The notes below the pieces were generated by a model. That model was not told the origin of the DNA. It ran no database searches and worked only from the letters and a program-made list of their open reading frames with translations. A stretch of DNA of 32,000 nucleotides from Verrucomicrobiota bacterium (GTDB taxonomy: Bacteria; Verrucomicrobiota; Verrucomicrobiia; Chthoniobacterales; UBA6821), in NCBI GenBank assembly GCA_008932965.1, contig WBXG01000006.1:1-32000 (forward strand), given 5' to 3'. This document shows positions 1 through 31,037 of this stretch, piece after piece (within the stretch, counting starts at the first letter, position 1; the number at the start of each line of letters is the position of its first letter). Both the position numbers and the translations under genes were made by a program.

Positions 1-119
1 AGACTCACATTTTGATTTGGGCAGTATGTACACATACAGCCCTGCATCAAAATGCTCGCCTGCCTTACCCCATCAGCCTTCGCGGCCTCCTCGTCACGAT
101 CAGTATGAAATATCCGGGT
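1..119 (-). mobile_element. MITE-like palindromic element, copy truncated by the window start (174-bp size class)
   Basis: It ends in gatcagtatgaaatatccgggt, followed by TA at 120-121. Bases 1-100 match the reverse complement of 19654-19753 at 99/100 positions. Confidence 0.85.
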
Positions 120-130
120 TAAGGAGTCGC

Positions 131-6780: not shown

Positions 6781-6817
6781 ACCGGTTACTATAACCATAA
6801 CTAAGAGAACAAGGCTA

Positions 6818-6885
6818 GCCCGGATATTTCATACTAAATCTATTACGGCTTATGGAAAGCTCATCATTACTGCGTTGATCTCGAA
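6818..6885 (-). mobile_element. MITE-like element, truncated copy (one terminus plus about 45 bp)
   Basis: TA (6816-6817) is followed by gcccggatatttcatactaaatctattacggct... This is collinear with the reverse complement of 30953-31020. Similarity is lost after 6885. The copy lies in the divergent usp / channel intergenic region. Confidence 0.75.
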
Positions 6886-6983
6886 TTATGATGAGATCAA
6901 GAAACGTGCCTCCATCTCTTACATACCAGAAGATCGCAAGAGATATTGTCAAGAGAGCGGATTAAAGATATACTCTTAAGATT

Positions 6984-7806: not shown

Positions 7807-7911
7807 CTATCCTTTGAGTAATTGAAAAAGATTGAATGCGACAAAGAAAATCATAGAGGCAACGGCCGTAATAAGTAGGATTTTTGGAGAGTGTTTAGCG
7901 ATGGCTTTCAT
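7807..7911 (-). CDS. Possible small hydrophobic membrane protein (34 aa)
   Basis: My own translation of the minus strand is MKAIAKHSPKILLITAVASMIFFVAFNLFQLLKG*. It is too short for the ORF track, contains one TM-like segment, and is followed by a good terminator. Confidence 0.35.
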   Translation of the reverse strand: MKAIAKHSPKILLITAVASMIFFVAFNLFQLLKG

Positions 7912-8057
7912 AATCGAGTTTGAGTTATAGGGTTATTAGTTATCGAGGGAATCAACAATGAATTTGTCTTACTTATTAAGACAATTCTTTTGTATTTTTT
8001 GTTCAAATTAATTATTTGAATCAAAAGTTCGACTTCAAAGAATATCTTCGAAGGCTA

Positions 8058-8224
8058 GCCCGGATATTTCATACTGATCTACTGCGTAAGCCGATAAGTC
8101 AGATGGATGCTGTGTTAAACACACATTTTGACTTGGACAGTATCTACTCATACATCCTCCCAAACGCCGGCGGTGTCTGGATCAAAATTTCAGAACCTCA
8201 CGATGAGGCACTGAATATCCGGGT
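8058..8224 (-). mobile_element. MITE-like element, 167-bp copy
   Basis: TA (8056-8057) is followed by gcccggatatttcatactgatctactgcg, and the copy ends in ...ctgaatatccgggt. It ends 15 bp downstream of the pnp stop. Track ORF 8016..8351 is mainly its translation (IFHTDLLRKPISQMDAVL). Confidence 0.85.
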
Positions 8225-10829: not shown

Positions 10830-10889
10830 ATTTTTTTACTAGTTAAAGAAGCTCTCACAGTTGTTATGGCTTGGCAAGAAGAAAGATTG

Positions 10890-10951
10890 AACCCTGATAT
10901 TTCATACTCATCGCAGCTTCCTCGTCACGATGAGTATGGAATATTCGGGTT
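10890..10951 (-). mobile_element. MITE-like element, 62-bp minimal copy (termini only)
   Basis: The sequence is aaccctgatatttcatactcatcg cagcttcctcg tcacgatgagtatggaatattcgggtt. It lies about 60 bp upstream of the rpsO start. Confidence 0.75.
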
Positions 10952-10972
10952 TATCAACTCTATGTATTCTTT

Positions 10973-12046: not shown

Positions 12047-13078
12047 CTAAATGGATGGGGGGCTGTTTATTTTCATGACTCGAAAACTTGTATATCCATC
12101 TTTTGTGACTGGCGGTGGAGCTTTTCCTTTTTCGACTTTATCTGTGGTATAGGTAGCTGCATACGCTTTCGGACAAGGATCAGTGCCAGGAACGAGGTAA
12201 TACTGTGTCATCAAATTATGATCGTGATGATACAGTGTATCACTCTGTGTGGTCGGGTTGCCACGGGTTGATGTCCATTCTTTAATTTCTAATTGAGAAT
12301 AAAAGAGTCCATAATTATCATAGAGTCCATTCATGTGGGTTTCATTTTGAGTATTTCCATAATAAAAATCGATTATTGGAAGTGACCACCGTGCACCTTC
12401 CTGTAATGTGATTCCAGTAAACATACTGCGATAGGTATCTCTAGTGGCATTAGCAAATCCACTAAGATAAGCATCATAACCGTTATCAATTTTATAGGCT
12501 CCAGTTTCTGTGGTTTCGTCTCCCTCAGGAGCCGTTGGCTGTCCATGGTGCAGCCAGTTACAGAAACGAGCAGCATCCAGTAAATTGATTCTAGTGATAG
12601 GGAGATCTCCTCTATGTACCTTATAGGATCGACCAGGAACTTCAATCTTCACTTCCGTATTAGGGTCGATCAAATCGTAATGGAATGTTCCATCGTTACG
12701 ACTGCTTTTCTGAATTTTAGCTACATGAGGAGGAGCAGTCTGGCGATGAGTTTTAGGATCAAATTGACCAACAGGATCCTTAGACATATCACTGGAGTAG
12801 AGTCCAAAGGGATCACTTTTTGTTGCTACCGCATTTAAAAAAGCACAATACTCATTGCCGGTAATACAAGATTCTGAGATATAAAAAAAGGGACCGTTTT
12901 GATTAGGTTTACCGTTTTGATCATTCTCTTCGTAAACGGGAATCTGTTTGATTTCAAAAGGGGGTACTAAAACTTCCAGGGGGGGGGAGTGAAGGCTCCT
13001 CAGAAGAGGGGGGGGCTTTAGGATCAGGCGTCGTTGTAGGAGAGTCCTCATTTCCGGAGGCAGGGAGAGAGGAATCAT
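12047..13078 (-). CDS. Formylglycine-generating-enzyme (SUMF1/FGE-sulfatase) domain protein, C-terminal fragment of a frameshifted gene
   Basis: It shows FGE-sulfatase-like motifs: GNEYCAFLNAVATKSDPFGLY, W..P, KEWTSTRG and GYTSFRVMK at the C-terminus. The N-terminal 35 aa are out-of-frame readthrough of the upstream ORF's Pro-rich tail. Confidence 0.7.
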   Translation of the reverse strand: MIPLSLPPEMRTLLQRRLILKPPPLLRSLHSPPLEVLVPPFEIKQIPVYEENDQNGKPNQNGPFFYISESCITGNEYCAFLNAVATKSDPFGLYSSDMSKDPVGQFDPKTHRQTAPPHVAKIQKSSRNDGTFHYDLIDPNTEVKIEVPGRSYKVHRGDLPITRINLLDAARFCNWLHHGQPTAPEGDETTETGAYKIDNGYDAYLSGFANATRDTYRSMFTGITLQEGARWSLPIIDFYYGNTQNETHMNGLYDNYGLFYSQLEIKEWTSTRGNPTTQSDTLYHHDHNLMTQYYLVPGTDPCPKAYAATYTTDKVEKGKAPPPVTKDGYTSFRVMKINSPPSI

Positions 13079-13388: not shown

Positions 13389-13404
13389 AAAAATTTTTGG
13401 GTTA

Positions 13405-13672
13405 ACCCGGATATTTCATACTGAATCGTCATGAGGCGCTGCGAATCCTGATGCAGACACCACCAGCGGTCGGGAGACCGCGGGGGAGACTGCCCTGGCT
13501 TTAAGGGGGCAGCACTGAAAGGGCGAGACGAGCGGGAGCAAGCGAGTCAACGAAGGTGATGGATTGTGACGACGGCTGTATGTTTCATACTGCCCGAGGA
13601 GCAATTCGAAGGTCAAGCAGTATCAATCAGGTGTTCGCAAGCCGCAGCAGAATCGGTATGAAATAGGCGGGT
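13405..13672 (+). mobile_element. MITE-like element, full 268-bp copy
   Basis: It is flanked by TA at 13403-13404 and 13673-13674, with termini acccggatatttcatactg ... ggtatgaaataggcgggt. It contains the 95-bp GC-rich internal module. The right-hand TA is part of the TAA stop of the minus-strand lipoprotein gene. Confidence 0.9.
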
Positions 13673-14496
13673 TAAGATTCTGGTGGTTCCAATAGCCTAA
13701 TTTTGGGATCGATCCAGCGGCTATCAGGAAAAATCAGGGGAGGAGTGGTAGTAACGAGGGTTGCTTTTTCTAAAACAAACTCAGGATAAAAAGAATCACT
13801 TGCTGGTTCATACACTTTCTCGCCGGAGAAGTGCCCCTCAAGTTGATACTCATAATTATTATCAGCTCCTATTTGATTTTTTTTTCGGTCAGGAGCTAGC
13901 ATTTTTTGCTCGTTGAACATGACTAATTGAGACCCTTTCCAAGGTTTGCTGGGCTCTTTTACCCAGCCCCACATATGATAGTCGACTTTATAAAAACGAC
14001 GTCCTATGAAGTAGTGACCTGGTGTTTCATTGGCAATGGCCCTCTTAATGGCAGTACGATCAGAGGCATTTTGCTCAACGATGGTTGTGCACCCAGAAAG
14101 AAATAGAAAAAAACCTAACAGTATCCCTAGCCCGAATATTTCATACTGATCGTGACGAGGAGGCCGCGAAAGCTGATGGGGCACCACCGGCGGTCGGGAG
14201 ACCGCGGGGGAGACTGCCCTGGCTTTAAGGGGGCAGCACTGAAAGGGCGAGACGAGCGGGAGCAAGCGAGTCAACGCAGACACATATTTTGACGCAGGGC
14301 TGTGTGTGTACACACTGCCCGAGGAAGACTTCGAGATCAACACAGCATCCATCTGACTTCCCGGTCTCCGCAGTAGATCAGAATGAAATATTTGGGCTAA
14401 AGCAACGAGGAATGGCTGTTGAAAGAATATTCTATCTTTAGAAATTCTTTTTTCATCATGATGACTCTGAGATCGCTCTCGTGGATGATCAGGCAT
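13672..14496 (-). CDS. Hypothetical lipoprotein with a MITE inserted in frame in its signal peptide (effective start uncertain)
   Basis: The ORF is open over 274 codons. A lipobox, LFLSGC, is followed by a 146-aa mature part. Codons 33-122 are the element (ALAQIFHSDLLRRPGSQMDAV...YEIFGL). Confidence 0.6.
   Translation of the reverse strand: MPDHPRERSQSHHDEKRISKDRIFFQQPFLVALAQIFHSDLLRRPGSQMDAVLISKSSSGSVYTHSPASKYVSALTRLLPLVSPFQCCPLKARAVSPAVSRPPVVPHQLSRPPRHDQYEIFGLGILLGFFLFLSGCTTIVEQNASDRTAIKRAIANETPGHYFIGRRFYKVDYHMWGWVKEPSKPWKGSQLVMFNEQKMLAPDRKKNQIGADNNYEYQLEGHFSGEKVYEPASDSFYPEFVLEKATLVTTTPPLIFPDSRWIDPKIRLLEPPES
14130..14397 (+). mobile_element. MITE-like element, full 268-bp copy, intragenic
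   Basis: It is flanked by TA at 14128-14129 and 14398-14399, with termini gcccgaatatttcatactgatc ... gatcagaatgaaatatttgggc. The internal GC-rich module lies at 14182-14276. Confidence 0.92.
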
Positions 14497-16804: not shown

Positions 16805-17383
16805 ATGATACGCTTTTTATTTTTTCGTAGGGGTCTTTTTGTAATTCTGCTGATATGCTTTGTTCATTGGAGCATGGGTGCAACAGCCTTGGAGGGAACA
16901 TCACCTCCTAGTGATCCCTTAAAACTAGGAATTGGGAGTAAGCCCCGACCCAAGAATGCACGAACTATTATCGATGCAGAAGAGGGAGCATGGTTTGATG
17001 ATTTAACCAATACCATTGAATTTAATGGGCATGTGGTTGTGCACGATCCGCAGTTTATCCTCTATTGCGACAAGTTGCATGTTGTGATGAATAAAAATCG
17101 CCAAGGCCTTCAGCAGGTTATCGCCACAGGCAATGTCATTATTGAACAAGAAAATACGAATGATCAAGGGGAGGCTATCAAATCCGTAGCACGTGCTGGC
17201 GAGGCTCTTTATGATCCCGCGACTGGCGATATGACACTGAAAATAGGACCTCAGATTCAACAAGGTCGAAGCTATCAAGTAGCAACAGAAGAGGGCACAG
17301 TGATGATTCTCAATAATAAGGGAACTTCAAGGACCATTGGAAAAAGTCGGGCTATGGTCGTCGACCCTGGCCAAACACCCTAG
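16805..17383 (+). CDS. lptA: LptA/OstA-family LPS transport periplasmic protein
   Basis: It has a signal peptide and an OstA N-terminal-like domain (F.G.V.V......L.CD.L.V......ATGNV.I) and lies upstream of lptB. Confidence 0.7.
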   Translation: MIRFLFFRRGLFVILLICFVHWSMGATALEGTSPPSDPLKLGIGSKPRPKNARTIIDAEEGAWFDDLTNTIEFNGHVVVHDPQFILYCDKLHVVMNKNRQGLQQVIATGNVIIEQENTNDQGEAIKSVARAGEALYDPATGDMTLKIGPQIQQGRSYQVATEEGTVMILNNKGTSRTIGKSRAMVVDPGQTP

Positions 17384-17413
17384 CCTGGATATTTCTTACT
17401 GAAATATCTGGGC
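17383..17413. repeat. Minimal 31-bp hairpin derivative of the MITE termini
   Basis: The sequence is gcctggatatttc ttact gaaatatctgggc. The TA at 17381-17382 belongs to the lptA TAG stop. It forms a 13-bp stem if two G-U pairs are allowed. Confidence 0.65.
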
Positions 17414-17470
17414 TCAACAATTCTTTACACTTTACTCAATACTCATTACCCGTTATTGGGTGTGAGCCCT

Positions 17471-19618: not shown

Positions 19619-19646
19619 CAATAAGCTTTTGCAGCTGCTTTTTACT

Positions 19647-19812
19647 CACCCTAATCGTGACGAGGAGGCCGCGAAGGCTGATGGGGTAAGGCAGGCGAGC
19701 ATTTTGATGCAGGGCTGTATGTGTACATACTGCCCAAATCAAAATGGGAGTCTAACGCAGCATCCATCTGACTTCGCGGTTTCCGTAGTAGATCAGTATG
19801 AAATATCCGGAT
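19647..19812 (+). mobile_element. MITE-like element, about 170-bp copy with a degenerate left terminus
   Basis: The right end is gatcagtatgaaatatccggat followed by TA (19813-19814). The interior is 99% identical to the reverse complement of 1-100. It starts about 30 bp after the ptsH stop. Track ORFs 19605..19964 and 19651..19887 are translations of it. Confidence 0.85.
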
Positions 19813-19982
19813 TAACTGAAACAGGTCAAAAAAAAGACAACCCGCCACACCCAAAGGTGCGACGGGTTGTTGTTCCCCCCAGAACATTCTTTCAATTGAT
19901 AGAAAAGTATAGTATAGGTAATTCTTTGCAATCCTTTTTTCTCAATAGAGGAAATATTCACTAGCACCTCCTCTCATTTTCT

Positions 19983-21611: not shown

Positions 21612-21627
21612 TCCGGATATTTCATAT
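21612..21627. repeat. Solo terminal repeat remnant of the MITE-like element
   Basis: The sequence tccggatatttcatat, preceded by TA, overlaps the ATG (21626) of the TPR ORF. Confidence 0.45.
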
Positions 21628-22009
21628 GAAGGTGCATCTTAATTCAGACTCTCATCATTCAGAGCTCTTTGATGAAGCAACAGGTGCTCTTGCTATTGGA
21701 GATCTTGAAGGTGCCGTCACCCTTTATCAGCAATGTGTCGACTTAGAGCCTGAATTTTTTGAAGGATGGCATGCCTTAGGAATGGCCTTGATGAAGATAG
21801 GTCGCTACTCGGATGCGATCCAAGCAGGATTACGAGCAACGGAGCTTGCTCCTAACGATCAACTGGCATGGTCAAGCCTTTCTCTTTTTTATGTTCGTAA
21901 TCACCAAATTCCCGAGGCAGAAGCAGCAGGGGTGAAAGCAAAAATTCTTTCATGGGGAGGAAAGATTGCACTTGGTGCTACGCAGAGAAGCCCGGATATT
22001 TCATCATGA
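21626..22009 (+). CDS. TPR-repeat protein
   Basis: The 127-aa product has TPR-like repeats (A..Y...L...P.....W..LG.AL...G.Y..A). The last 7 codons and the stop are encoded by the element at 21990-22076. Confidence 0.55.
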   Translation: MKVHLNSDSHHSELFDEATGALAIGDLEGAVTLYQQCVDLEPEFFEGWHALGMALMKIGRYSDAIQAGLRATELAPNDQLAWSSLSLFYVRNHQIPEAEAAGVKAKILSWGGKIALGATQRSPDISS

Positions 22010-22076
22010 AGTCTCATGCGGCGCTGCTGAGTCATATCGACGCTGCATTGTCACGATAAGCATGAAATATCTGGGA
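21990..22076. mobile_element. MITE-like element, 87-bp degenerate copy
   Basis: The termini are gcccggatatttcatcatg ... gcatgaaatatctggga. Confidence 0.65.
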
Positions 22077-22169
22077 TCGAAAAATTGGAAAATCCTAGAA
22101 TTCTCCTCTTATTACGTTTAGCTTCCTTCTCACAGTTTAATTTTCATTACCAATTTTCACTCTATCATC

Positions 22170-24103: not shown

Positions 24104-27100
24104 GTGAGTACTTCTCCACAACCTCTCTTTTTTGATTGGAAGAACCCCTGGCTACCGCCTCTTGCTACCTATTTGCTGCATACGTGGAATCAAGGAACAA
24201 GCGCTTCTCAAGAGGATCTTTCTTCAACTGTAGTTGTTCTTCCTGGTCGTCGTGCGGGAAGGAGGCTTTTAGAGTTATTGGCATTGGAAGCAGAGAAAGA
24301 GAAATGGAATTTGAATCCTCCTTCTATTGTGACACTACGCGAGGCGGTAACCCTACTGTTGAAACCAAGTGAAAAAACTCTTCCCGAAGCGAGTGGCGTA
24401 TTGCAGCGATTTGCCTGGCGTGAGGCTTTTCGAATGCTTCCGAAGTATCATCGAGATCATATTCAACCTTTTTCTAAGAAGGTCATTCCTCCAAGAAGTA
24501 GTGAGGTGTTGATTGGAATCATAGAATCACTTGCAGAAGAGATCGGAAGTAAGGGGCTTGATTTTCATACTGTGGCAGTTCGAGTGGGAGAGGTTTTTCC
24601 AGAATCTGCAGAACGAGAGCAACCTCGCTGGGAAGCACTTGCTTATCTTCAAAAAACCTACCGCAAGATGATGGCTTCATGGGGATATTCTGATCCTGCC
24701 GACTTTCTACGTTCTTCTCTCACCCATGGAGAAGTGTCCAAGGGTGTTCGAGTACTCGTAGCAGGAGTAGTGGAGGCTCCTCCACTTTTTGAATCTTTTT
24801 TTGAAAAAATAAAGCCCGCAGTGATTATTATTGCACCTAAGGAACATGCGGCAGGCTTTACCAATCATGGATTACTTGTGAAAGAATATTGGTTAGAGCA
24901 TCCACCAGTGATTCAAGATACAGAGCTCCTTCCATGCGAACGAAATGAAGATCAAGCAAAGGAGGTGGTTCGATTAATAACCCCTTTTAAGGATAGGAGA
25001 TCCGAGGTAACTGTTGCTCTCCCAGATTCCTCAACACTCCCCTTACTACAAACTCGGTTGGCACATGTAGGAGTTACAACTCGATGGGCAGGGGGGCTTC
25101 CTTTTCGTGGAGGACGTTTGTATCAACTCTTAAGAGCCATTGCTCATTTTTTAGATCATCACAACTATTCAGGACCAACAATAGCAGCTCTCAGTGCTCT
25201 TGTGCGCCATCCTGATATTTATCCCCATTGCATGGCACCAGAGGCATTTTTAAAAAAACTTGATCTTTTAGAACGTGAGCATCTCCCGCTCTTTTTAGAT
25301 AAGGGAAGTCTTGCTTCTTTCAAAAAAAATGAAGACCTCCTTCTCTGGATAGATGAACTTGAAACCCTCATTGGAATTGGGTCAGAGCCAGTATCGCTAG
25401 AGGAGGGAGCATCGAAATTACGAACTCTTTTGCAACATCTTTTCGGAAAACGGAAGGTACGGGGGAATACTTTTGAGGGGCATTATTTTTTAGGATGCCT
25501 CGAGGAATGCTTACACCTGCTAGATGAAATCGAAGAGATGGGTCCTCATATTTCTGAGCATTTTTCAATGAGTGCCTTTCTAGAAAATCTTCTGGAACTT
25601 CTTAAAGAAAAAAATATCCCAGAACAAGAAGAACCAGAAGCACTCGAATTACTTGGATGGCTAGAGTTGCAGGCTGATGATGCTCCCTATTGCATCATCA
25701 CTTCATGCCACGAAGGATCTTTTCCACAGAGTTTAACATCCAATCCTTTTTTGTCTCAGGGGCTTCGCTCACGTTTGGGTCTTAGTGAGGAGAGTTTGTT
25801 GCTCGCACGTGATCATTATCTTCTTCAAAGTATTATGGCTTCCCGCCAGGTTATCTTGATAGCACCTCGCTACAATGGTCGTGGAGAACCTGCTCGTCCT
25901 AGCCGTCTTTTAATGCTCGGATTGACTTTAGAGGAGTTGCCGCAACGGGTCCTCCAATTAACACAACCTCTCTTAGCCCCGATATTTCATACTGATCGTG
26001 ACGAAGAGACTGCGAAGGCTAATGGAGCGGGAGCGAGCGAGTCAACGCAGGCACGTATTTTGAAGCAGGGCTGTAGGAGTCTGACGCAGCATCCATCTGC
26101 CTTCTCGACCTCCGCAGGTGATCGGTATGAAATATCTGGGCTAAAAGAAGAAAAAATAAAGGAGCGAGCCCTCCCTCATCATGCTTCTCACTTTCATGCA
26201 CGACCTCTCGGTACAGAAAAGGTCACCTGTGTGACAGTGACAGGACTCCGGACCTATTTACAATCACCGCGACTTTTTTATCTCCAGCATGTCCTGCGAC
26301 TTCATGAAGTGGAGGAGGCTCCCCTAGAAATGAATGCTGGTCATTTTGGACGACTCATTCATGAGGTCTTAGGAGCTTTTGGGATGGAAGAAAAAAATAT
26401 CCCGTCAACCGATGCACGAACTTTATCAGAGTGGCTTCGAAGAAAACTTTTTTCTATAGCAGAGCACTATTTTGCTCCAGGACCCTCTCTTCCGATTCAA
26501 TTACAATTGGAGGCCATGGCGGAGACCTTAGATGGCTTTGCACAAGCTCAAGTAGCCCATTACCAGGAGGGATGGAGAATCATTGCAGCTGAAAACAACC
26601 ATTACTCTTCATCCCCAGTGATTGAGGAAAAAATGGCACTCGATGAGGGAGGCTCTCTTCTGTTACAGGGTCGCATTGATCGTATCGATTGGAATTACAA
26701 GCTGAGTCGCTGGATGATTATCGATTATAAAACACGGCACGATCAGGAATGGAGCAATGCCACCCCTGATAGAGAACATTTTCAAAAAAAAGGAGAAAAA
26801 ATTCTTTGGAAAGATCTTCAGCTTCCACTGTATTTAAGACTCTCTGCTCACTGGAAGGCGATTCAGGAATCAGGGCTTCCTGCTCCCACTATTGAGAATA
26901 CCGATCTGTGCTACTTTCAGTTACCCATAGAAACGGAGCAAGCAGGAGTGAGTGAACCATTTGATCCTAAGATGATCCTGCCTGGATGGAATGAAGCACG
27001 TCGTATTATGAAAGCGATCGTAGATGGAAATTTTGATGCACTTGGAACAATCGAAGCCATACGTATGCCTACCCTTGCTGCTCTCTGTGGAATTTCAATA

Positions 27101-27160
27101 CTAGAACCTAAAAAAAATGGGGTGATTCGCTCGGGGAGTGATTCAGAAACTATTGAGTGA
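24104..27160 (+). CDS. addB: AddB-like PD-(D/E)XK nuclease subunit carrying an in-frame MITE
   Basis: The 1018-aa product has a degenerate helicase-like N-terminal half and a C-terminal RecB-type nuclease motif, GRIDRID...IIDYKT. It overlaps the downstream UvrD/AddA-like gene by 4 nt (GTGA). Confidence 0.7.
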   Translation: MSTSPQPLFFDWKNPWLPPLATYLLHTWNQGTSASQEDLSSTVVVLPGRRAGRRLLELLALEAEKEKWNLNPPSIVTLREAVTLLLKPSEKTLPEASGVLQRFAWREAFRMLPKYHRDHIQPFSKKVIPPRSSEVLIGIIESLAEEIGSKGLDFHTVAVRVGEVFPESAEREQPRWEALAYLQKTYRKMMASWGYSDPADFLRSSLTHGEVSKGVRVLVAGVVEAPPLFESFFEKIKPAVIIIAPKEHAAGFTNHGLLVKEYWLEHPPVIQDTELLPCERNEDQAKEVVRLITPFKDRRSEVTVALPDSSTLPLLQTRLAHVGVTTRWAGGLPFRGGRLYQLLRAIAHFLDHHNYSGPTIAALSALVRHPDIYPHCMAPEAFLKKLDLLEREHLPLFLDKGSLASFKKNEDLLLWIDELETLIGIGSEPVSLEEGASKLRTLLQHLFGKRKVRGNTFEGHYFLGCLEECLHLLDEIEEMGPHISEHFSMSAFLENLLELLKEKNIPEQEEPEALELLGWLELQADDAPYCIITSCHEGSFPQSLTSNPFLSQGLRSRLGLSEESLLLARDHYLLQSIMASRQVILIAPRYNGRGEPARPSRLLMLGLTLEELPQRVLQLTQPLLAPIFHTDRDEETAKANGAGASESTQARILKQGCRSLTQHPSAFSTSAGDRYEISGLKEEKIKERALPHHASHFHARPLGTEKVTCVTVTGLRTYLQSPRLFYLQHVLRLHEVEEAPLEMNAGHFGRLIHEVLGAFGMEEKNIPSTDARTLSEWLRRKLFSIAEHYFAPGPSLPIQLQLEAMAETLDGFAQAQVAHYQEGWRIIAAENNHYSSSPVIEEKMALDEGGSLLLQGRIDRIDWNYKLSRWMIIDYKTRHDQEWSNATPDREHFQKKGEKILWKDLQLPLYLRLSAHWKAIQESGLPAPTIENTDLCYFQLPIETEQAGVSEPFDPKMILPGWNEARRIMKAIVDGNFDALGTIEAIRMPTLAALCGISILEPKKNGVIRSGSDSETIE
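25976..26141 (+). mobile_element. MITE-like element, 166-bp copy, intragenic (addB-like)
   Basis: It is flanked by TA at 25974-25975 and 26142-26143, with termini gccccgatatttcatactgatc ... gatcggtatgaaatatctgggc. It is translated in frame as APIFHTDRDEETAKANG...DRYEISGL. Confidence 0.92.
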
Positions 27161-30100
27161 TTATGCCTCTTTTTATTCAACGAGCTTCAGCGGGATCAGG
27201 TAAAACAGAGCAACTTGCACGCCGTTATTTGCAGATTCTTTTGAATAAAGATCTCATGGGCTATGAGGTCGATCCAGTTACAATTGTAGCAGCAACGTTT
27301 ACCCGGGAGGCTGCAGGAGAAATTTTAAATCGTATTTTGAAAATACTTTCGACCGCATGTCTGGATAGATCGGTCTGCCAAAGGATTGTCGAAGAGACAC
27401 CCCTCCCCGTCCCATCACCAATCGAATGCCAACGATTACTCCGACGACTCATGGAGCGCATCGATGAGCTTCGTATTGGAACCATCGATTCCCTTTTCGC
27501 TCAGCAAGCACGTGCTTTTGTATTGGATCTTGGAATAGCCCCTCATTGGGAAATTGCAGATAGTCTGACGGTCCATAAACTGGCCCAAAGAACCTTGCTT
27601 CATCTCTTGAAGTTAGATCCGCTCTTTGCACAAGATTGGAAGATTCTCCACCACTTTCAACGATCCCTTTCCTTGGTGAAAAAAGGGGCTCTTCTTCTTG
27701 AAAAAAATCGTTTTGTCGCACGTCATGAGCTACTCGAAACAACTCCAGAAAAAAAATCTCCTCCACGAAGGGTTTCAAGAGAAGACCAAACATCGATTCA
27801 TCACTTTTTTTCCTCATTTCATATTCCTCTTACTGGTCAGGGAAAACCGAATGGGCATTGGATTGCTGCTATAAAAAAAATAGAAGAGGCTTTTTCTCAA
27901 CCGCTCTATCTCAAGGATGTATTAGACCATAGTCCTCTTTTCTCTCAACTACTTCATGAGGAACCCCGTTTTTATGGAAAAGAAATACCACCAGAATTCA
28001 TTTATTTTTTTTCTCCGTTAATAGAAGCTTCACAAGCTGAACAACAACGCTTGGCCTTACTTCGAGAAGGAGCATTGCATCGGCTTGCACACGATTATCA
28101 CTATCTCCGAAGTGACTATTCCTTTGACGAAGGTCGCTACACTTTTCAAGAAATTGAAGAAATAGTAAGTCTCTCCTCCCAGAAAATATCTAAGGAGGAA
28201 ATCGAATTTCAGATGGACCTCTCTACGGAGCATCTCTTAATTGATGAATATCAGGATACCAGCGAGCGTCAGCATGCCTTTCTCTCTCCTTTGATTGGAG
28301 ATGTGCTCGCAAAGGGAGGGGTTGCCTTTGTGGTTGGAGATGTGAAGCAGGGAATTTATGGATGGCGTGGAGGAAAGCGGCATCTTCTAGGTTCTTTAGA
28401 AAAAGACTACGAATCCTATCTTCAAAAAACCAAGCTTCACCACACAAGTTATCGTTCTAGCCCTGCCATTCTAGCAGCAGTGAATCACGTTTTTGAGGCA
28501 CTCAAAAATTCAGATGTTGTTGAAGGAATGAACGCTGGAGAGCCATTTAAAGAAGCTGCAGCACGCTGGTCGCTTGAATTTGAACCCCAGGTATCAGCTA
28601 CTTCTGTTGTTGGCTTAAAAGGGAGTGTCACGCTTCACAAAATTCCAGTGGCTCCAGGAGAGCTTCAGAATGAGATCATGGAATTGGTTATTCAAAAAGT
28701 AGTGGAGCTAGTAGTAGCTCATCGACGAGAAGATCCATTACGTGAAATTGCAATTCTTGTGAGACGCACGAAATTTATTCCTTCTCTACTTTTGAACTTA
28801 CGAGAGAGTGGAATATTAGCAAGTGGAGAGGGAGGCAATCCACTCGCTGATACGTTGGCTGTTGAGGTGCTCCTCTCCCTACTCTCATGGATGGAGCATC
28901 CAGGAAATTCTGCAGCCTATGAACATGTACACTCATCCCCATTAGGAGATCTGTTAAAAGAACAGGGAGCTTCCCCCTCCACTCAAGGGGCTGCACTACG
29001 TGAACTACTAGTGGATCGGGGTTATGCAACATGCCTGCGTGCCTGGGCCACACGACCGGTTTTTCAAGAGGCATGCAGTGATTATGAAAAGGAACGCCTG
29101 GAACAATTCATAGCAATGGCTTCCCGCTTTGAATTGCTTGGTGGTGGGGCTCCCTCAGATCTTGTGGCACGGGCACGTGAGGAGCGCGTGGAGAGCCCTT
29201 TAAGTCGTGGAGTGAGGGTGCTTAGCATGCATGCTGCCAAGGGGCTCGAGTTTGAAAGTGTTGTTCTCATGGATCTCGACACCTCTATTTTTGGTGGGAG
29301 TGCCCATGCAATGCGTGTTCAAACAACAGATGATGGAAAATTCTTTATTCAGAATAATCGTGAAATGACCTTGCTACAAGGGAGAGAGCATTTATTAAAA
29401 ATCCATCAAGAGGAGCAATGGGAGGAGGCATTGAGCCTCCTTTATGTGGCGATGACACGAGCGATTTGCTTTTTAGATATTGTGCTCATGGACGATGTGA
29501 ACCGGAAAATTCCAAAAAAAAGCATGGCAGGATGGCTACGTGTCTCTGGGCTTGAAGACCATCAACATGATGGTCTTTCGTTACGCGAGCAAAGAACAAA
29601 AACAGCTCTAGCCCCCATATTTCATACCGATCTACTACGGAAGCCGGGAAGTCAGATGGATGCTGCGTTGAGCTCGAAGTCTTCCTCGGGCAGTAGGGAC
29701 TCATACAGCCCTGCGTCAAAATATGTGTCTGCGTTGACTTGCTCGCTCCCGCTCGTCTCGCCCTTTCAGGGCTGCCCCCTTAAAGCCAGGGCAGTCTCCA
29801 CCGCGGTCTCCCGACCGCCGGTGGTGCCCCATCAGCTTTCGCAGCCTCCTCTTCACGATCAGAATAAAATATGCGGGCTAGAAAGTAATAGTGATAAGAA
29901 AAAGCCGTGTTCGTTCGAGGTAACCTCACTTCAAAGGTCTCCACTATTGCTGAAGCGAACCCCCTCCAAAGAAAATCAAAAAGGGCTTCATGCGTTATCT
30001 GACTATTTTTATGATCGGAAAGCCCGTTCCTATGGAATCGTCCAGCATCGTGCACTAGCTCAGATAGAATGGATTAACAGGACTGCATCTCATCCATTGA

Positions 30101-30441
30101 ACGAAATACTAGAGAAGAAAGAAGATCATGCTGTTTTTGATGAGGAGTATTTTTTCTCTAAATGGAAAAAATGGGGAATTACCACATTGGAGGTCTGGAG
30201 GGAGCGGCGCTTTGCTGTGATTCAAAAAAACGAACTACTCGTAGGGACTTTTGATCGAGTTATTATAGGTTCCCTTGAAAAACCCATGGTGGCTGAAATC
30301 GTCGATTTTAAAACAGCTCCAGCCCAGGACAAAGAGCGACGTTGTCATCACTACGAGCTGCAGCTCGAGGAGTATCGAAAGGCTCTTCAACATTTGCTTC
30401 CAACATTAAGACACATTGAAACAAAAGTTGTTTGGATTTAA
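27157..30441 (+). CDS. addA: AddA-like UvrD-family helicase-nuclease carrying an in-frame MITE
   Basis: It has Walker A (ASAGSGKTEQL), DEYQDT, YRSSP, HAAKGLEFESVVL and LLYVAMTRA motifs, and a C-terminal nuclease motif GTFDRV...IVDFKT. Confidence 0.8.
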   Translation: MIMPLFIQRASAGSGKTEQLARRYLQILLNKDLMGYEVDPVTIVAATFTREAAGEILNRILKILSTACLDRSVCQRIVEETPLPVPSPIECQRLLRRLMERIDELRIGTIDSLFAQQARAFVLDLGIAPHWEIADSLTVHKLAQRTLLHLLKLDPLFAQDWKILHHFQRSLSLVKKGALLLEKNRFVARHELLETTPEKKSPPRRVSREDQTSIHHFFSSFHIPLTGQGKPNGHWIAAIKKIEEAFSQPLYLKDVLDHSPLFSQLLHEEPRFYGKEIPPEFIYFFSPLIEASQAEQQRLALLREGALHRLAHDYHYLRSDYSFDEGRYTFQEIEEIVSLSSQKISKEEIEFQMDLSTEHLLIDEYQDTSERQHAFLSPLIGDVLAKGGVAFVVGDVKQGIYGWRGGKRHLLGSLEKDYESYLQKTKLHHTSYRSSPAILAAVNHVFEALKNSDVVEGMNAGEPFKEAAARWSLEFEPQVSATSVVGLKGSVTLHKIPVAPGELQNEIMELVIQKVVELVVAHRREDPLREIAILVRRTKFIPSLLLNLRESGILASGEGGNPLADTLAVEVLLSLLSWMEHPGNSAAYEHVHSSPLGDLLKEQGASPSTQGAALRELLVDRGYATCLRAWATRPVFQEACSDYEKERLEQFIAMASRFELLGGGAPSDLVARAREERVESPLSRGVRVLSMHAAKGLEFESVVLMDLDTSIFGGSAHAMRVQTTDDGKFFIQNNREMTLLQGREHLLKIHQEEQWEEALSLLYVAMTRAICFLDIVLMDDVNRKIPKKSMAGWLRVSGLEDHQHDGLSLREQRTKTALAPIFHTDLLRKPGSQMDAALSSKSSSGSRDSYSPASKYVSALTCSLPLVSPFQGCPLKARAVSTAVSRPPVVPHQLSQPPLHDQNKICGLESNSDKKKPCSFEVTSLQRSPLLLKRTPSKENQKGLHALSDYFYDRKARSYGIVQHRALAQIEWINRTASHPLNEILEKKEDHAVFDEEYFFSKWKKWGITTLEVWRERRFAVIQKNELLVGTFDRVIIGSLEKPMVAEIVDFKTAPAQDKERRCHHYELQLEEYRKALQHLLPTLRHIETKVVWI
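29611..29878 (-). mobile_element. MITE-like element, full 268-bp copy, intragenic (addA-like)
   Basis: It is flanked by TA at 29609-29610 and 29879-29880, with termini gcccccatatttcataccgatc ... gatcagaataaaatatgcgggc. It contains the GC-rich module in reverse orientation. Confidence 0.92.
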
Positions 30442-30614
30442 CCCGCATATTTCATACCAATCACCTGTGGAGATCGGGTCAGATAGATGATGCGTTCATC
30501 TCAAAGTCTTCCTCAGGCAGTGTGTACACGCGCATATGTCGTCAGACTTCATCGCTCGTCTTGCCCTATCAGCCTCGAGACCTCCTAGTCACGATCAGTA
30601 TGAAATATCCTGGC
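30441..30614 (-). mobile_element. MITE-like element, 174-bp copy
   Basis: It is flanked by TA at 30439-30440 (the first two bases of the addA-like TAA stop) and 30615-30616, with termini acccgcatatttcatacc ... gatcagtatgaaatatcctggc. Confidence 0.88.
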
Positions 30615-30624
30615 TAACCCCAGA

Positions 30625-30870: not shown

Positions 30871-30894
30871 AGGAAATAGTTAGTTTTGAGATTA

Positions 30895-31020
30895 GCCTAA
30901 ATATTTTATACTGATCGTGACGAGGCGGCCGTGAAGACTGATGGGGCAAGACTTCGAGATCAACGCAGTAATGAGGAGCTTTCCACAAGCCGTAATAGAT
31001 TTAGTGTGAAATATCCGGGT
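30895..31020 (+). mobile_element. MITE-like element, 126-bp copy
   Basis: It is flanked by TA at 30893-30894 and 31021-31022, with termini gcctaaatattttatactgatcgtgacgagg ... gtgtgaaatatccgggt. Confidence 0.88.
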
Positions 31021-31037
31021 TAGATTAAATTGCCCTC

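Follow-up and report, generated by a model that had tools for sequence, protein, structure and literature searches.

A TA-duplicating MITE inserted in frame in the addB-like gene of a freshwater Chthoniobacterales bacterium and probably read through as a tolerated loop

The addB-like gene of the Verrucomicrobiota bacterium studied here most probably (roughly 85%) carries a non-autonomous, TA-duplicating, hairpin-forming MITE that is inserted in frame in a linker of the protein, is read through and is tolerated rather than used as a functional loop. The element belongs to a previously undescribed MITE family, which is abundant in a freshwater lineage of Chthoniobacterales (Verrucomicrobiota). 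The window, that is, the whole stretch of DNA analysed, comprises 32,000 nt of the contig WBXG01000006.1 (GCA_008932965.1), positions 1 to 32,000 of the forward strand. The host gene and the parts of the element are as follows.

24104..27160, + strand: AddB-like helicase-nuclease subunit, 1018 aa, with a PD-(D/E)XK domain at residues 711-945 and the B. subtilis AddB fold
25974..25975, + strand: left TA of the target-site duplication, which supplies positions 2-3 of a Leu codon (TTA); TA flanks occur family-wide
25976..26141, + strand: 166-bp MITE body in orientation 'A', encoding APIFHTDRDEE...DRYEISG
25976..25997, + strand: left terminal inverted repeat, GCCCCGATATTTCATACTGATC
26120..26141, - strand: right terminal inverted repeat, whose reverse complement is GCCCAGATATTTCATACCGATC
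26142..26143, + strand: right TA of the target-site duplication, which completes the last inserted codon, CTA (Leu), begun by the terminal C of the element

The original prediction described a 166-bp element that together with one TA adds 168 bp, or exactly 56 codons, and this reading holds: the TA at 25974-5 is followed by 25976-26141 and by the TA at 26142-3, and the site at 25974-26143 reads cct ctc tTA/GCCCCGATATTTCATACTGATC...GATCGGTATGAAATATCTGGGC/TA aaa gaa. Removal of the element and one TA gives CCT CTC TTA AAA GAA and so restores PLLKE, as had been proposed; the corresponding empty-allele junction is CCTCTCTTAAAAGAAG. The 1018-codon ORF does run intact through the element (24104-27160, + strand) and contains the peptide APIFHTD...YEISGL. 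The gene would thus be read straight through and gain 56 residues, since the length of the element with its TA is divisible by three and the family has no stops in the usable phase.

The inverted ends of the element (~24 nt) pair at 24 of 26 positions, the TA being counted, and the family ends consist of TA followed by RCCCGGATATTTCATAC. With up to three mismatches allowed, the 22-nt end is matched 10 times in the window, compared with 0.00 times expected from shuffles. The element folds end to end as a hairpin with a nearly perfect stem (-71.9 kcal/mol, z = -4.6). Its 166 bp have no transposase coding capacity, and the body is a shortened relative of a 268-bp long variant, being 87% identical to the copy at 14128-14399. 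By its small size, inverted ends, dispersed copies and TA duplication, the element is a MITE.

The identity of the host protein came from fold comparison, a PDB sequence search with it having given no match. The top structural matches of its model are the AddB chains 4cej_B and 3u4q_B (E = 1e-25 to 1e-23, TM 0.5-0.58). The only Pfam domain found in the protein is PF12705. The AddB-type fold, the C-terminal PD-(D/E)XK nuclease and the adjoining addA gene (UvrD helicase and nuclease) together identify the host as AddB. Residues D859, D862, D874 and K876 of the nuclease motif do not vary among the aligned AddB sequences. AddB of B. subtilis has a four-cysteine iron-sulfur cluster around the nuclease domain; at the sequence level such a cluster is not evident here, C995 being the sole near-invariant cysteine in alignments of 20 and 70 AddB sequences.

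The insert occupies residues 624-679, ahead of the Pfam nuclease domain at 711-945, which agrees with its proposed place between the helicase-like half and the nuclease domain. In the AlphaFold2 model of the protein (pLDDT 86.6, pTM 0.82), residues 627-696, that is, the insert and the native linker, form the sole internal segment with pLDDT below 50, and this segment is flanked by well-predicted domains, a fold-compatible placement. The model thus agrees with the suggestion of an extruded loop, and the insert probably gives AddB a disordered loop. The element lies at a TA forming positions 2-3 of a Leu codon, in the variable stretch that links the inactivated-helicase part to the PD-(D/E)XK nuclease domain. 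The rest of addB is under purifying selection, and in the encoded peptide nothing points to selection other than for an open, in-frame sequence.

When the protein is aligned with its orthologues, P0003-P0020 and others are gapped across all 56 residues and carry no homologous residues there, as expected of an insertion. These orthologues, at 41-58% identity, were compared in amino-acid alignment, the DNA level also being examined. The native linker from LTQ to FHARP is about 20 aa long in orthologues and 19 aa in the window protein minus the insert. The closest relatives, L001 and L079 (77% AddB identity), both have the same addB TA occupied, in each case by another member of the family lying in the opposite orientation. 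An orthologous, same-orientation copy was considered for L001 and rejected, since re-alignment showed an inversion. The same TA therefore holds three different occupants, by orientation or subfamily, in three related genomes. In the Kiruna orthologue (P0006/L002), a family member is inserted at another position. Occupation of the site probably predates the divergence from the L001/L079 lineage, the occupant having been replaced or inverted later.

No clean empty allele of the addB site was found among the orthologues of relatives, which is explained by the occupation of this TA in the two closest ones; the more distant orthologues have diverged too far to offer a base-exact empty site. Two metagenome scans returned no empty allele either; the second of them also missed known occupied alleles (e.g., the JGI contig behind L079), so neither result counts against such an allele. 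Direct evidence of mobility comes from the neighbouring addA gene, in and beside which the following features lie.

27157..30441, + strand: AddA-like partner (UvrD helicase and PD-(D/E)XK), 1094 aa, downstream of addB
29609..29880, + strand: second in-frame copy, inside addA (TA + 268 bp + TA), a long variant in the opposite orientation that adds 90 codons
30439..30616, + strand: copy in the TA of the addA stop codon (ATT TAA/CCC); the insertion restores the stop and leaves the C-terminus of AddA as it was

The in-frame addA copy is missing from L079, L001, L003 and L004, and the window sequence minus 270 bp aligns gap-free with L079 and L001. This filled/empty pair directly demonstrates mobility with TA duplication for the addA copy. 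The TA duplication of the family was thus examined at base level through this sister copy, the comparison for the addB copy itself being one of gaps at the amino-acid level in distant orthologues. L001, L079 and L080 also have an occupant at the TA of the addA stop codon; in L080, a chimeric element with a synteny break can be noted.

The persistence of the addB frame might also be read as mere recency: the insertion would have inactivated or split addB, or its hairpin would cause termination or cleavage by RNase III, and full-length protein would not be produced. The RNA of the element indeed forms a long, nearly perfect hairpin, and the transcript hairpins of Correia elements in Neisseria have been proposed as RNase III substrates (PMC2229807). 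Nevertheless, such inactivation is unlikely. Across the gene, dN/dS is about 0.19 (0.18-0.20 outside the insert) in three MITE-bearing lineages at dS of 0.23-0.62, and the same TA is occupied in all three, which indicates that addB has long carried an insert and yet has been constrained on both sides of it. The catalytic residues of the nuclease are invariant, the 1018 codons are kept in all population variants, and in-frame copies are found in addA and other recognisable genes as well. In the 90% cluster, 10 of 10 full-length sequences (NCBI, JGI, ENA, Logan) are 1018 aa long. Nine residues vary in the whole AddB across the population and none of them lies in the insert, where 0.5 would be expected, numbers too small to interpret. 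Read-through of a tolerated MITE thus remains the preferred reading, under which the insert would be translated and neutral in its effect on AddB. The perfect ~24-bp stem in the mRNA could still serve as an RNase III substrate and lower expression.

The repeat family is represented in the 32-kb window by about 17 copies or fragments. Besides those in addB and addA, the following can be distinguished.

1..121, - strand: copy cut by the window start, then a 33-bp end fragment (122-154)
6816..6900, + strand: copy with only the left end recognisable, intergenic
8056..8170, + strand: copy with only the left end intact, intergenic
10889..10952, + strand: 64-bp mini-copy consisting of the two ends only, intergenic, with decayed TA flanks
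13403..13674, + strand: intergenic long copy, 'variant' subfamily, with stops closing both orientations
14128..14399, + strand: full-length long variant (268 bp plus TAs) inside the open frame 13672-14496(-), just upstream of a lipoprotein-like signal peptide
17381..17415, + strand: 35-bp remnant of two overlapping ends, whose TA plus G is the TAG stop of the LptA-like ORF 16805-17383
19646..19814, + strand: 5'-truncated copy, intergenic, upstream of a surA-like gene; L001 and L079 have an occupant at the syntenic site
21988..22078, + strand: 91-bp decayed copy providing the TPR gene 21626-22009 with its final 8 codons and its stop
30893..31022, + strand: 130-bp internally deleted copy, intergenic

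The ORF 13672-14496(-) was considered as a third in-frame host and rejected: a lipoprotein-type signal peptide follows right after the element and there is no Pfam match. Since the conserved part starts after the element and lacks a Pfam match, the read-through in this ORF may be fortuitous.

In ~0.5 Mb of related Chthoniobacterales MAG loci, 88 complete TA..TA copies were counted, 63 of them exactly 178 bp long. The family sizes are 178 bp and 268 bp, and all copies have the same ends; the Nannocystis loci L006-L024 yielded no copy. In related MAGs, such repeats often stand at contig ends. When read in the xTA phase, the consensus of the family contains no stop in either orientation (xTA GCC CGG ATA TTT CAT ACT GAT...), while the other two phases are closed in 70 of 70 copies. 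Long ORFs contain 12 of the 88 copies, every one in the xTA phase and at least six in Pfam-recognisable genes. The in-frame hosts are addB, addA and eight further ORFs in relatives, five of which have Pfam domains; a permease, NAD synthase, PMT glycosyltransferase, ResB and a phosphodiesterase are among the recognisable ones. Part of the census is biased, as the search that gave the loci L025-L078 used the element-encoded peptide; of the 37-39 copies in the unbiased subset, only 2-4 fall within long ORFs. Most copies are intergenic, the intragenic share being 5-16%.

The census bears on the possibility that the 56 residues are native to AddB or form a domesticated functional loop (e.g., an interaction surface), the family being derived from or kept for a coding function. 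Among interior shuffles, just 1.7% keep both orientations open in the usable phase (p of about 0.017), peptides derived from the element turn up in many proteins, and for the RPEs of Rickettsia a positive effect could not be excluded (PMC2229807). Despite this, a functional loop is very improbable. The synonymous fraction is not raised in ORF copies (26% vs 25-35%, Fisher p = 0.20), and for this reason the functional-peptide reading was set aside. At one and the same site, relatives have occupants in different orientations and therefore with different peptides, which speaks against a specific role of the peptide; orthologues lack the segment, most copies are intergenic, and the segment is predicted to be unstructured. 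Copies in ORFs are more diverged than intergenic ones (17% vs 10.5%). An excess of multiples of three among the non-canonical copies of the unbiased subset was not significant (10/21, p = 0.12).

Two further explanations can be dealt with briefly. Threading of a repeat copy into addB by metagenome assembly is hardly credible: the source is indeed a metagenome-assembled genome, and contig ends in repeats and the chimeric L080 element with its synteny break are known from its relatives, but the same 1018-aa architecture occurs in ten distinct full-length sequences from NCBI, JGI, ENA and Logan, the same TA is occupied in related genomes, and the addB copy is in frame and unique in sequence. Removal of the element after transcription or translation in the manner of an intron or intein, which would leave it absent from the mature protein, is suggested by the precise boundaries and the self-complementarity of the segment but is extremely improbable, given that Rfam finds no family anywhere in the window, group I/II introns included, that Pfam finds PD-(D/E)XK and no Hint/intein domain, that the insert runs from Ala to Gly-Leu and then Lys without the Cys/Ser...His-Asn/Cys/Ser/Thr needed for protein splicing, and that 56 aa are far too few for an intein.

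The duplication of a TA dinucleotide is a trait of IS630/Tc1-mariner-derived (Stowaway-like) elements, and it suggests that the family may be moved in trans by a transposase of this type. The TA duplication is what the IS630-like assignment is drawn from, since no matching transposase or autonomous element was found in ~0.5 Mb: in the window and 80 loci, no pairs of ends lie 600-3000 bp apart around a transposase-sized ORF. A scan of viral contigs for the terminal repeat gave 0 matches.

Possibly, though we put this forward only tentatively, the family is 'coding-proof', its length plus TA being a multiple of three and both orientations being stop-free, and occupied sites are long-lived landing pads whose occupants are replaced or flipped. 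A family of this kind would be suited to gene-dense genomes and would persist inside essential genes at permissive linkers. Recombination anchored in the terminal repeats might exchange the occupants, as might a fresh insertion at a flanking TA with subsequent loss of the old copy; either route would leave the host reading frame unbroken. Landing pads would account for the occupation of four out of four syntenic sites across three genomes whose dS reaches 0.6, and also for the way in which the subfamily and orientation of the occupants follow the genome.

In-frame MITE fusions are already known from RPE, QMITE, ERIC and Correia elements. The original prediction held that intact ORFs carrying palindromic repeats are well known in Rickettsia but rare elsewhere; a high frequency is indeed reported chiefly from Rickettsia, whereas fusions of MITEs with ORFs in frame are called 'not unusual' for several bacteria (PMC10969869), so the second part of this statement holds only in part. 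According to Ogata et al. 2000, 2002, as summarised in PMC10969869 and PMC2229807, RPEs resemble the addB family in being short (about 100-180 bp), palindromic and hairpin-forming, and in lying both between genes and in frame in conserved genes. The same summaries describe the added peptide as fold-compatible and apparently neutral, one family recurring in many unrelated genes, as in the addB family, and an RPE-bearing guanylate kinase as translated and active (PMC2229807). Recurrent in-frame insertion in conserved genes with the ORF kept, an RPE trait, is found in the addB family too.

The differences are also clear. RPEs are hosted by Rickettsia and the addB family by Verrucomicrobiota (Chthoniobacterales) of freshwater MAGs, and no sequence link between them was noted in a comparison made through Rfam, in which the window had no match. 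The target-site duplication of RPEs is listed as uncertain and their inverted repeats as about 12 bp (PMC2229807, Table 1), whereas the addB family has a clear TA duplication and 22-24-nt ends. The intragenic share is 19/44 for R. conorii RPEs in these summaries, against 5-16% here, and, unlike RPEs, the addB family has a consensus open in both orientations, both of which are used in ORFs. Consequently, the addB element works like an RPE but is not one.

The Correia/NEMIS elements of Neisseria are likewise abundant MITEs of 100-160 bp with ~24-26-bp inverted ends, TA duplication and hairpin transcripts, and ORFs of the 107-bp Correia form occur as fusions with other ORFs (PMC2229807). They mainly affect the expression of neighbours (promoters, IHF site, RNase III processing) or disrupt genes, and have no sequence similarity to the addB family. 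RUP of Streptococcus pneumoniae and other IS630-mobilised Stowaway-like MITEs share the TA duplication, their ends presumably being recognised in trans (PMC2229807); the ends of RUP match IS630-Spn1, whereas for the addB family no partner was found in ~0.5 Mb and the link is by analogy. QMITE1 and QMITE2 of Coxiella burnetii also overlap genes, donate C-terminal residues or stops and occasionally lie in frame in the middle of ORFs, and a QMITE copy is inverted between strains (PMC5896051). Their in-frame cases concern mostly hypothetical proteins or gene ends, while the addB family enters conserved enzymes in mid-protein.

The colonisation of coding regions by palindromic elements, long held to be a peculiarity of Rickettsia, thus recurs in an unrelated phylum known from freshwater metagenomes, and here in a family showing the transposon hallmarks (TA duplication, long inverted ends) that RPEs largely lack. 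Gene callers and orthology pipelines will list 'lineage-specific inserts' of 56-90 residues in AddA, AddB and other enzymes that are really selfish DNA, and the same elements break assemblies and can yield chimeric joins. The lineage offers natural replicates both for the tolerance of proteins to random loop insertions and for the homogenisation of repeat copies within a genome.

The original prediction described a MITE inserted in frame in the addB-like ORF 24104-27160 (+), and every detail of this observation holds. At 25974-26143 the sequence reads cct ctc tTA, followed by GCCCCGATATTTCATACTGATC ... GATCGGTATGAAATATCTGGGC and then TA aaa gaa, that is, a 166-bp body between two TAs; the body and one TA make 168 bp, or 56 codons. 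The 1018-codon ORF is open across the element, with the peptide originally quoted, and deletion of the body and one TA regains the empty site CCT CTC TTA AAA GAA. The inverted repeats at the element ends match at 24 of 26 positions, TA included, and the entire element folds into a single long hairpin (-71.9 kcal/mol versus a shuffle mean of -52.4; z = -4.6). The 22-nt element end has 10 matches in the window with up to three mismatches, whereas 0.00 are expected.

The label "addB-like" stands as well, because the fold, the domain content and the gene neighbourhood all agree with it. Pfam places a PD-(D/E)XK nuclease domain at residues 711-945 and finds UvrD helicase and PD-(D/E)XK domains in the following, addA-type ORF 27157-30441. 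A sequence search alone gave no match to the protein in the PDB; the top PDB fold matches of its AlphaFold2 model (70 homologues, mean pLDDT 86.6, pTM 0.82) are the AddB chains of B. subtilis AddAB (4cej_B, E = 1.6e-25, TM 0.58/0.52). By its homologues and related contigs, the organism belongs to the Verrucomicrobiota, among the Chthoniobacterales/"Spartobacteria" MAGs (Tobar, Kiruna, Lac Pavin and others).

Three lines of evidence establish that the 56-residue segment is an insertion, as originally interpreted. First, it is one of a family of repeats. The window contains about 17 copies or fragments with its ends, flanked by TA on both sides where intact, and 88 complete TA-to-TA copies were found in the window and approximately 0.5 Mb of related MAG loci, 63 of them exactly 178 bp long; unrelated Nannocystis loci fetched alongside contain none. 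Second, residues 624-679 correspond to a gap in orthologues at 41-58% identity (proteins P0003-P0020; loci L002-L005), whose native linker from LTQ to FHARP comprises about 20 residues versus 19 in the window protein minus the insert; MITE-free orthologues thus have no homologous residues at this position. Third, the Kiruna orthologue (P0006/L002) carries a family member, LTRIFHADRDEEAAKADG...CEISGL, at another addB position, about 480 residues further upstream.

Other family members in the window also touch coding sequences:
29609-29880, orientation opposite to the addB copy: in-frame addA copy of the long variant (TA + 268 bp + TA, 90 codons)
30439-30616: third copy, in the TA of the addA stop codon; TAA regenerated, AddA C-terminus TKVVWI unchanged
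17381-17415: 35-bp remnant of two overlapping ends; its TA+G is the TAG stop of the LptA-like ORF 16805-17383

The 90-residue addA insert is absent from L079, L001, L003 and L004. When the element and one TA are removed, the window aligns with the two closest relatives, L079 and L001, over approximately 140 nt with zero gaps, and this filled/empty pair demonstrates transposition of the family with duplication of a 2-bp TA target. At the addA stop codon, TAA is regenerated because the first base of the inserted element is A. TA duplication combined with long inverted ends typifies IS630/Tc1-mariner-mobilised MITEs, such as RUP with IS630-Spn1 (PMC2229807), and by this analogy the family is probably mobilised in the same fashion. 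The window and the related MAG loci (approximately 0.5 Mb) yielded neither an autonomous copy nor a transposase, and viral contigs gave no exact match to the terminal repeat.

Several further observations concern the window copies. A 98-nt internal module of the long variant occurs at 13458-13555, 14182-14279 and 29729-29826. Two copies spaced 724 bp apart share 98% identity over this module, whereas their other parts fall into different subfamilies (62-76% identity); the module may be either a nested mobile unit or a conversion tract. The open frame 13672-14496 (-), of 274 codons, passes through the long copy 14128-14399. L043 shares the C-terminal 139 residues at 86% identity, and this conserved part starts with a lipoprotein-like signal, LLGFFLFLSGC, directly after the element, which probably lies at or before the true N-terminus of the product. 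The TPR gene 21626-22009 encodes 127 aa versus 117 aa in L079; the ancestral TAG is now CAG, and a decayed MITE end (21988-22078) provides the last eight codons and the stop. Between ORFs 145-1725 and 1972-2970 there are two intergenic 55-nt direct repeats (1777-1831 and 1842-1896; 85% identical), each with GGGCCGCTG...CAGCGGCCC inverted ends and unrelated to the MITE family.

The ends of the element dictate whether an ORF survives. The left end is open when read xTA GCC CGG ATA TTT CAT ACT GAT; the remaining two phases meet a stop at TAG/TAA (TA plus the first base) or at TGA in CATACTGA. None of 70 copies has either of these phases open, in either orientation. In the permitted phase, the 178-bp consensus is open in both orientations (LTRIFHTDRDEEAAKADG...DRYEISGL and LTRIFHTDLLRRPGSQMDAAL...HDQYEISGL), as are only 1.7% of interior shuffles. 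With one TA, the main size classes measure 168, 180, 261 and 270 bp, each a multiple of three; among the non-canonical sizes of the unbiased subset, the excess of multiples of three is not significant (10/21, p = 0.12). Owing to the open phase of the ends and these main sizes, TA insertion at codon positions 2-3 always gives a read-through fusion.

Of the 88 complete copies, 12 are located in long ORFs with 60 or more open codons to either side, all 12 in the permitted phase, in a census partly biased by the retrieval of loci L025-L078 through the element peptide FHTDRDEE. The majority of copies are intergenic, and in the unbiased subset only 2-4 of 37-39 lie within genes. The hosts are addB (three copies), addA (one) and eight other genes; in a Pfam scan, five of the latter had hits (branched-chain permease, NAD synthase, PMT-type glycosyltransferase, ResB and phosphodiesterase) and three had none. 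Several in-ORF hosts contain two tandem copies.

Other AddB orthologues have lineage-specific inserts of 40-60 residues in alignment A1:
P0024: columns 511-570
P0005 and P0009: columns 1230-1285
P0007: columns 681-726
P0006: columns 985-1021
Those of P0005 and P0009 (QNLYSKSAAAAMDC... and QNLFSQSTEGCKEL...) share a position inside the nuclease domain and are related in sequence. These inserts may represent in-frame members of other repeat families.

With the insert excluded, dN/dS for addB is 0.18-0.20 in all three pairs of the window, L001 and L079 (dS 0.23-0.62), and the nuclease motif D859, D862, D874, K876 is invariant across 70 homologues. An assembly artefact is ruled out by the 10 full-length sequences of the 90% cluster from NCBI, JGI, ENA and Logan, all of 1018 aa. 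In the predicted structure, the sole internal segment with pLDDT below 50 is 627-696, which covers the insert and native linker and is flanked by helix 611-620 and strand 709-711. The encoded peptide shows no sign of selection: synonymous changes make up 26% of the differences from the consensus in ORF copies and 25-35% in phase-matched intergenic copies, so that there is no excess (p = 0.20); divergence is 17% in ORF copies versus 10.5% in intergenic ones. The best reading, on evolutionary rather than experimental evidence, is that the insert is a tolerated, essentially neutral loop, as was likewise concluded for the RPE-bearing guanylate kinase (PMC2229807). RNase III might act on the hairpin in addB mRNA, as has been suggested for transcripts of Correia elements (PMC2229807).

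The same addB TA is occupied in both closest relatives, L001 (6725-6906) and L079/L080 (about 7871-8052), whose AddB proteins are 77% identical to that of the window and 88% to each other. L001 has a canonical copy there, 178 bp long and inverted relative to that of the window (alignment score 179 reversed versus 131 direct), with the "LLRKPGS" form of the peptide; the occupant in L079/L080 (P0002) is a 178-bp variant-subfamily copy, 89% identical to the window copy at 13403. The three occupants are 76-81% identical mutually and 85-89% identical to non-orthologous copies. A similar pattern holds for the addA stop-codon TA, where L001, L079 and L080 have copies that differ in orientation or subfamily. 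The window, L001 and L079 also all have an element at each of two syntenic intergenic positions, one upstream of surA and the other following the TPR gene. The subfamily goes with the genome rather than with the site: 4/5 copies are variant in L079, 4/4 canonical in L001 and 9/10 canonical or long in the window.

Strong target preference is a possible explanation of the shared occupied sites. Given the same-site occupancy and the genome-specific subfamilies, occupancy looks ancient, with the occupant apparently replaced or flipped. Such turnover might proceed through the identical inverted ends, as anchors for recombination or gene conversion, or a new copy might insert at a TA flanking the resident one, the older copy then being lost; the latter route predicts tandem intermediates, and tandem in-ORF dimers exist. 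A metagenome-contig scan with the right flank common to the window, L001 and L079 was uninformative (0 matches, the JGI contig of L079 itself being missed). L079 and L080 encode an identical AddB protein; downstream of addA, at about 12075-12260, L080 carries an element whose left half is variant and whose right half is canonical, and at this chimera synteny with L079 breaks off, reflecting either MITE-MITE recombination or an assembly join.

Consensus sequences built per genome from the 178-bp copies (Tobar, Kiruna and Deming loci) share 88-93% identity, and the closest pair between genomes reaches 94%, whereas the AddB proteins of the hosts share only about 55%. Conservation so far beyond that of neutral DNA suggests horizontal spread or constrained master copies.

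In-frame MITE-ORF fusion is already a known phenomenon, documented for RPEs (19 ORFs in R. conorii), ERIC, BOX, the 107-bp Correia form, Anabaena MITEs and Coxiella QMITEs (PMC10969869, PMC2229807, PMC5896051). Rfam has no counterpart of the present family, and our literature search found no paper linking Chthoniobacterales or Spartobacteria with MITEs. The novelty lies in the family, which acts like RPE and is not RPE, in its phylum and habitat, in the fact that ORFs use both orientations and in the pattern of conserved sites with variable occupants. The addB finding would be of wider interest if the ideas of a coding-proof design and of site turnover hold up.
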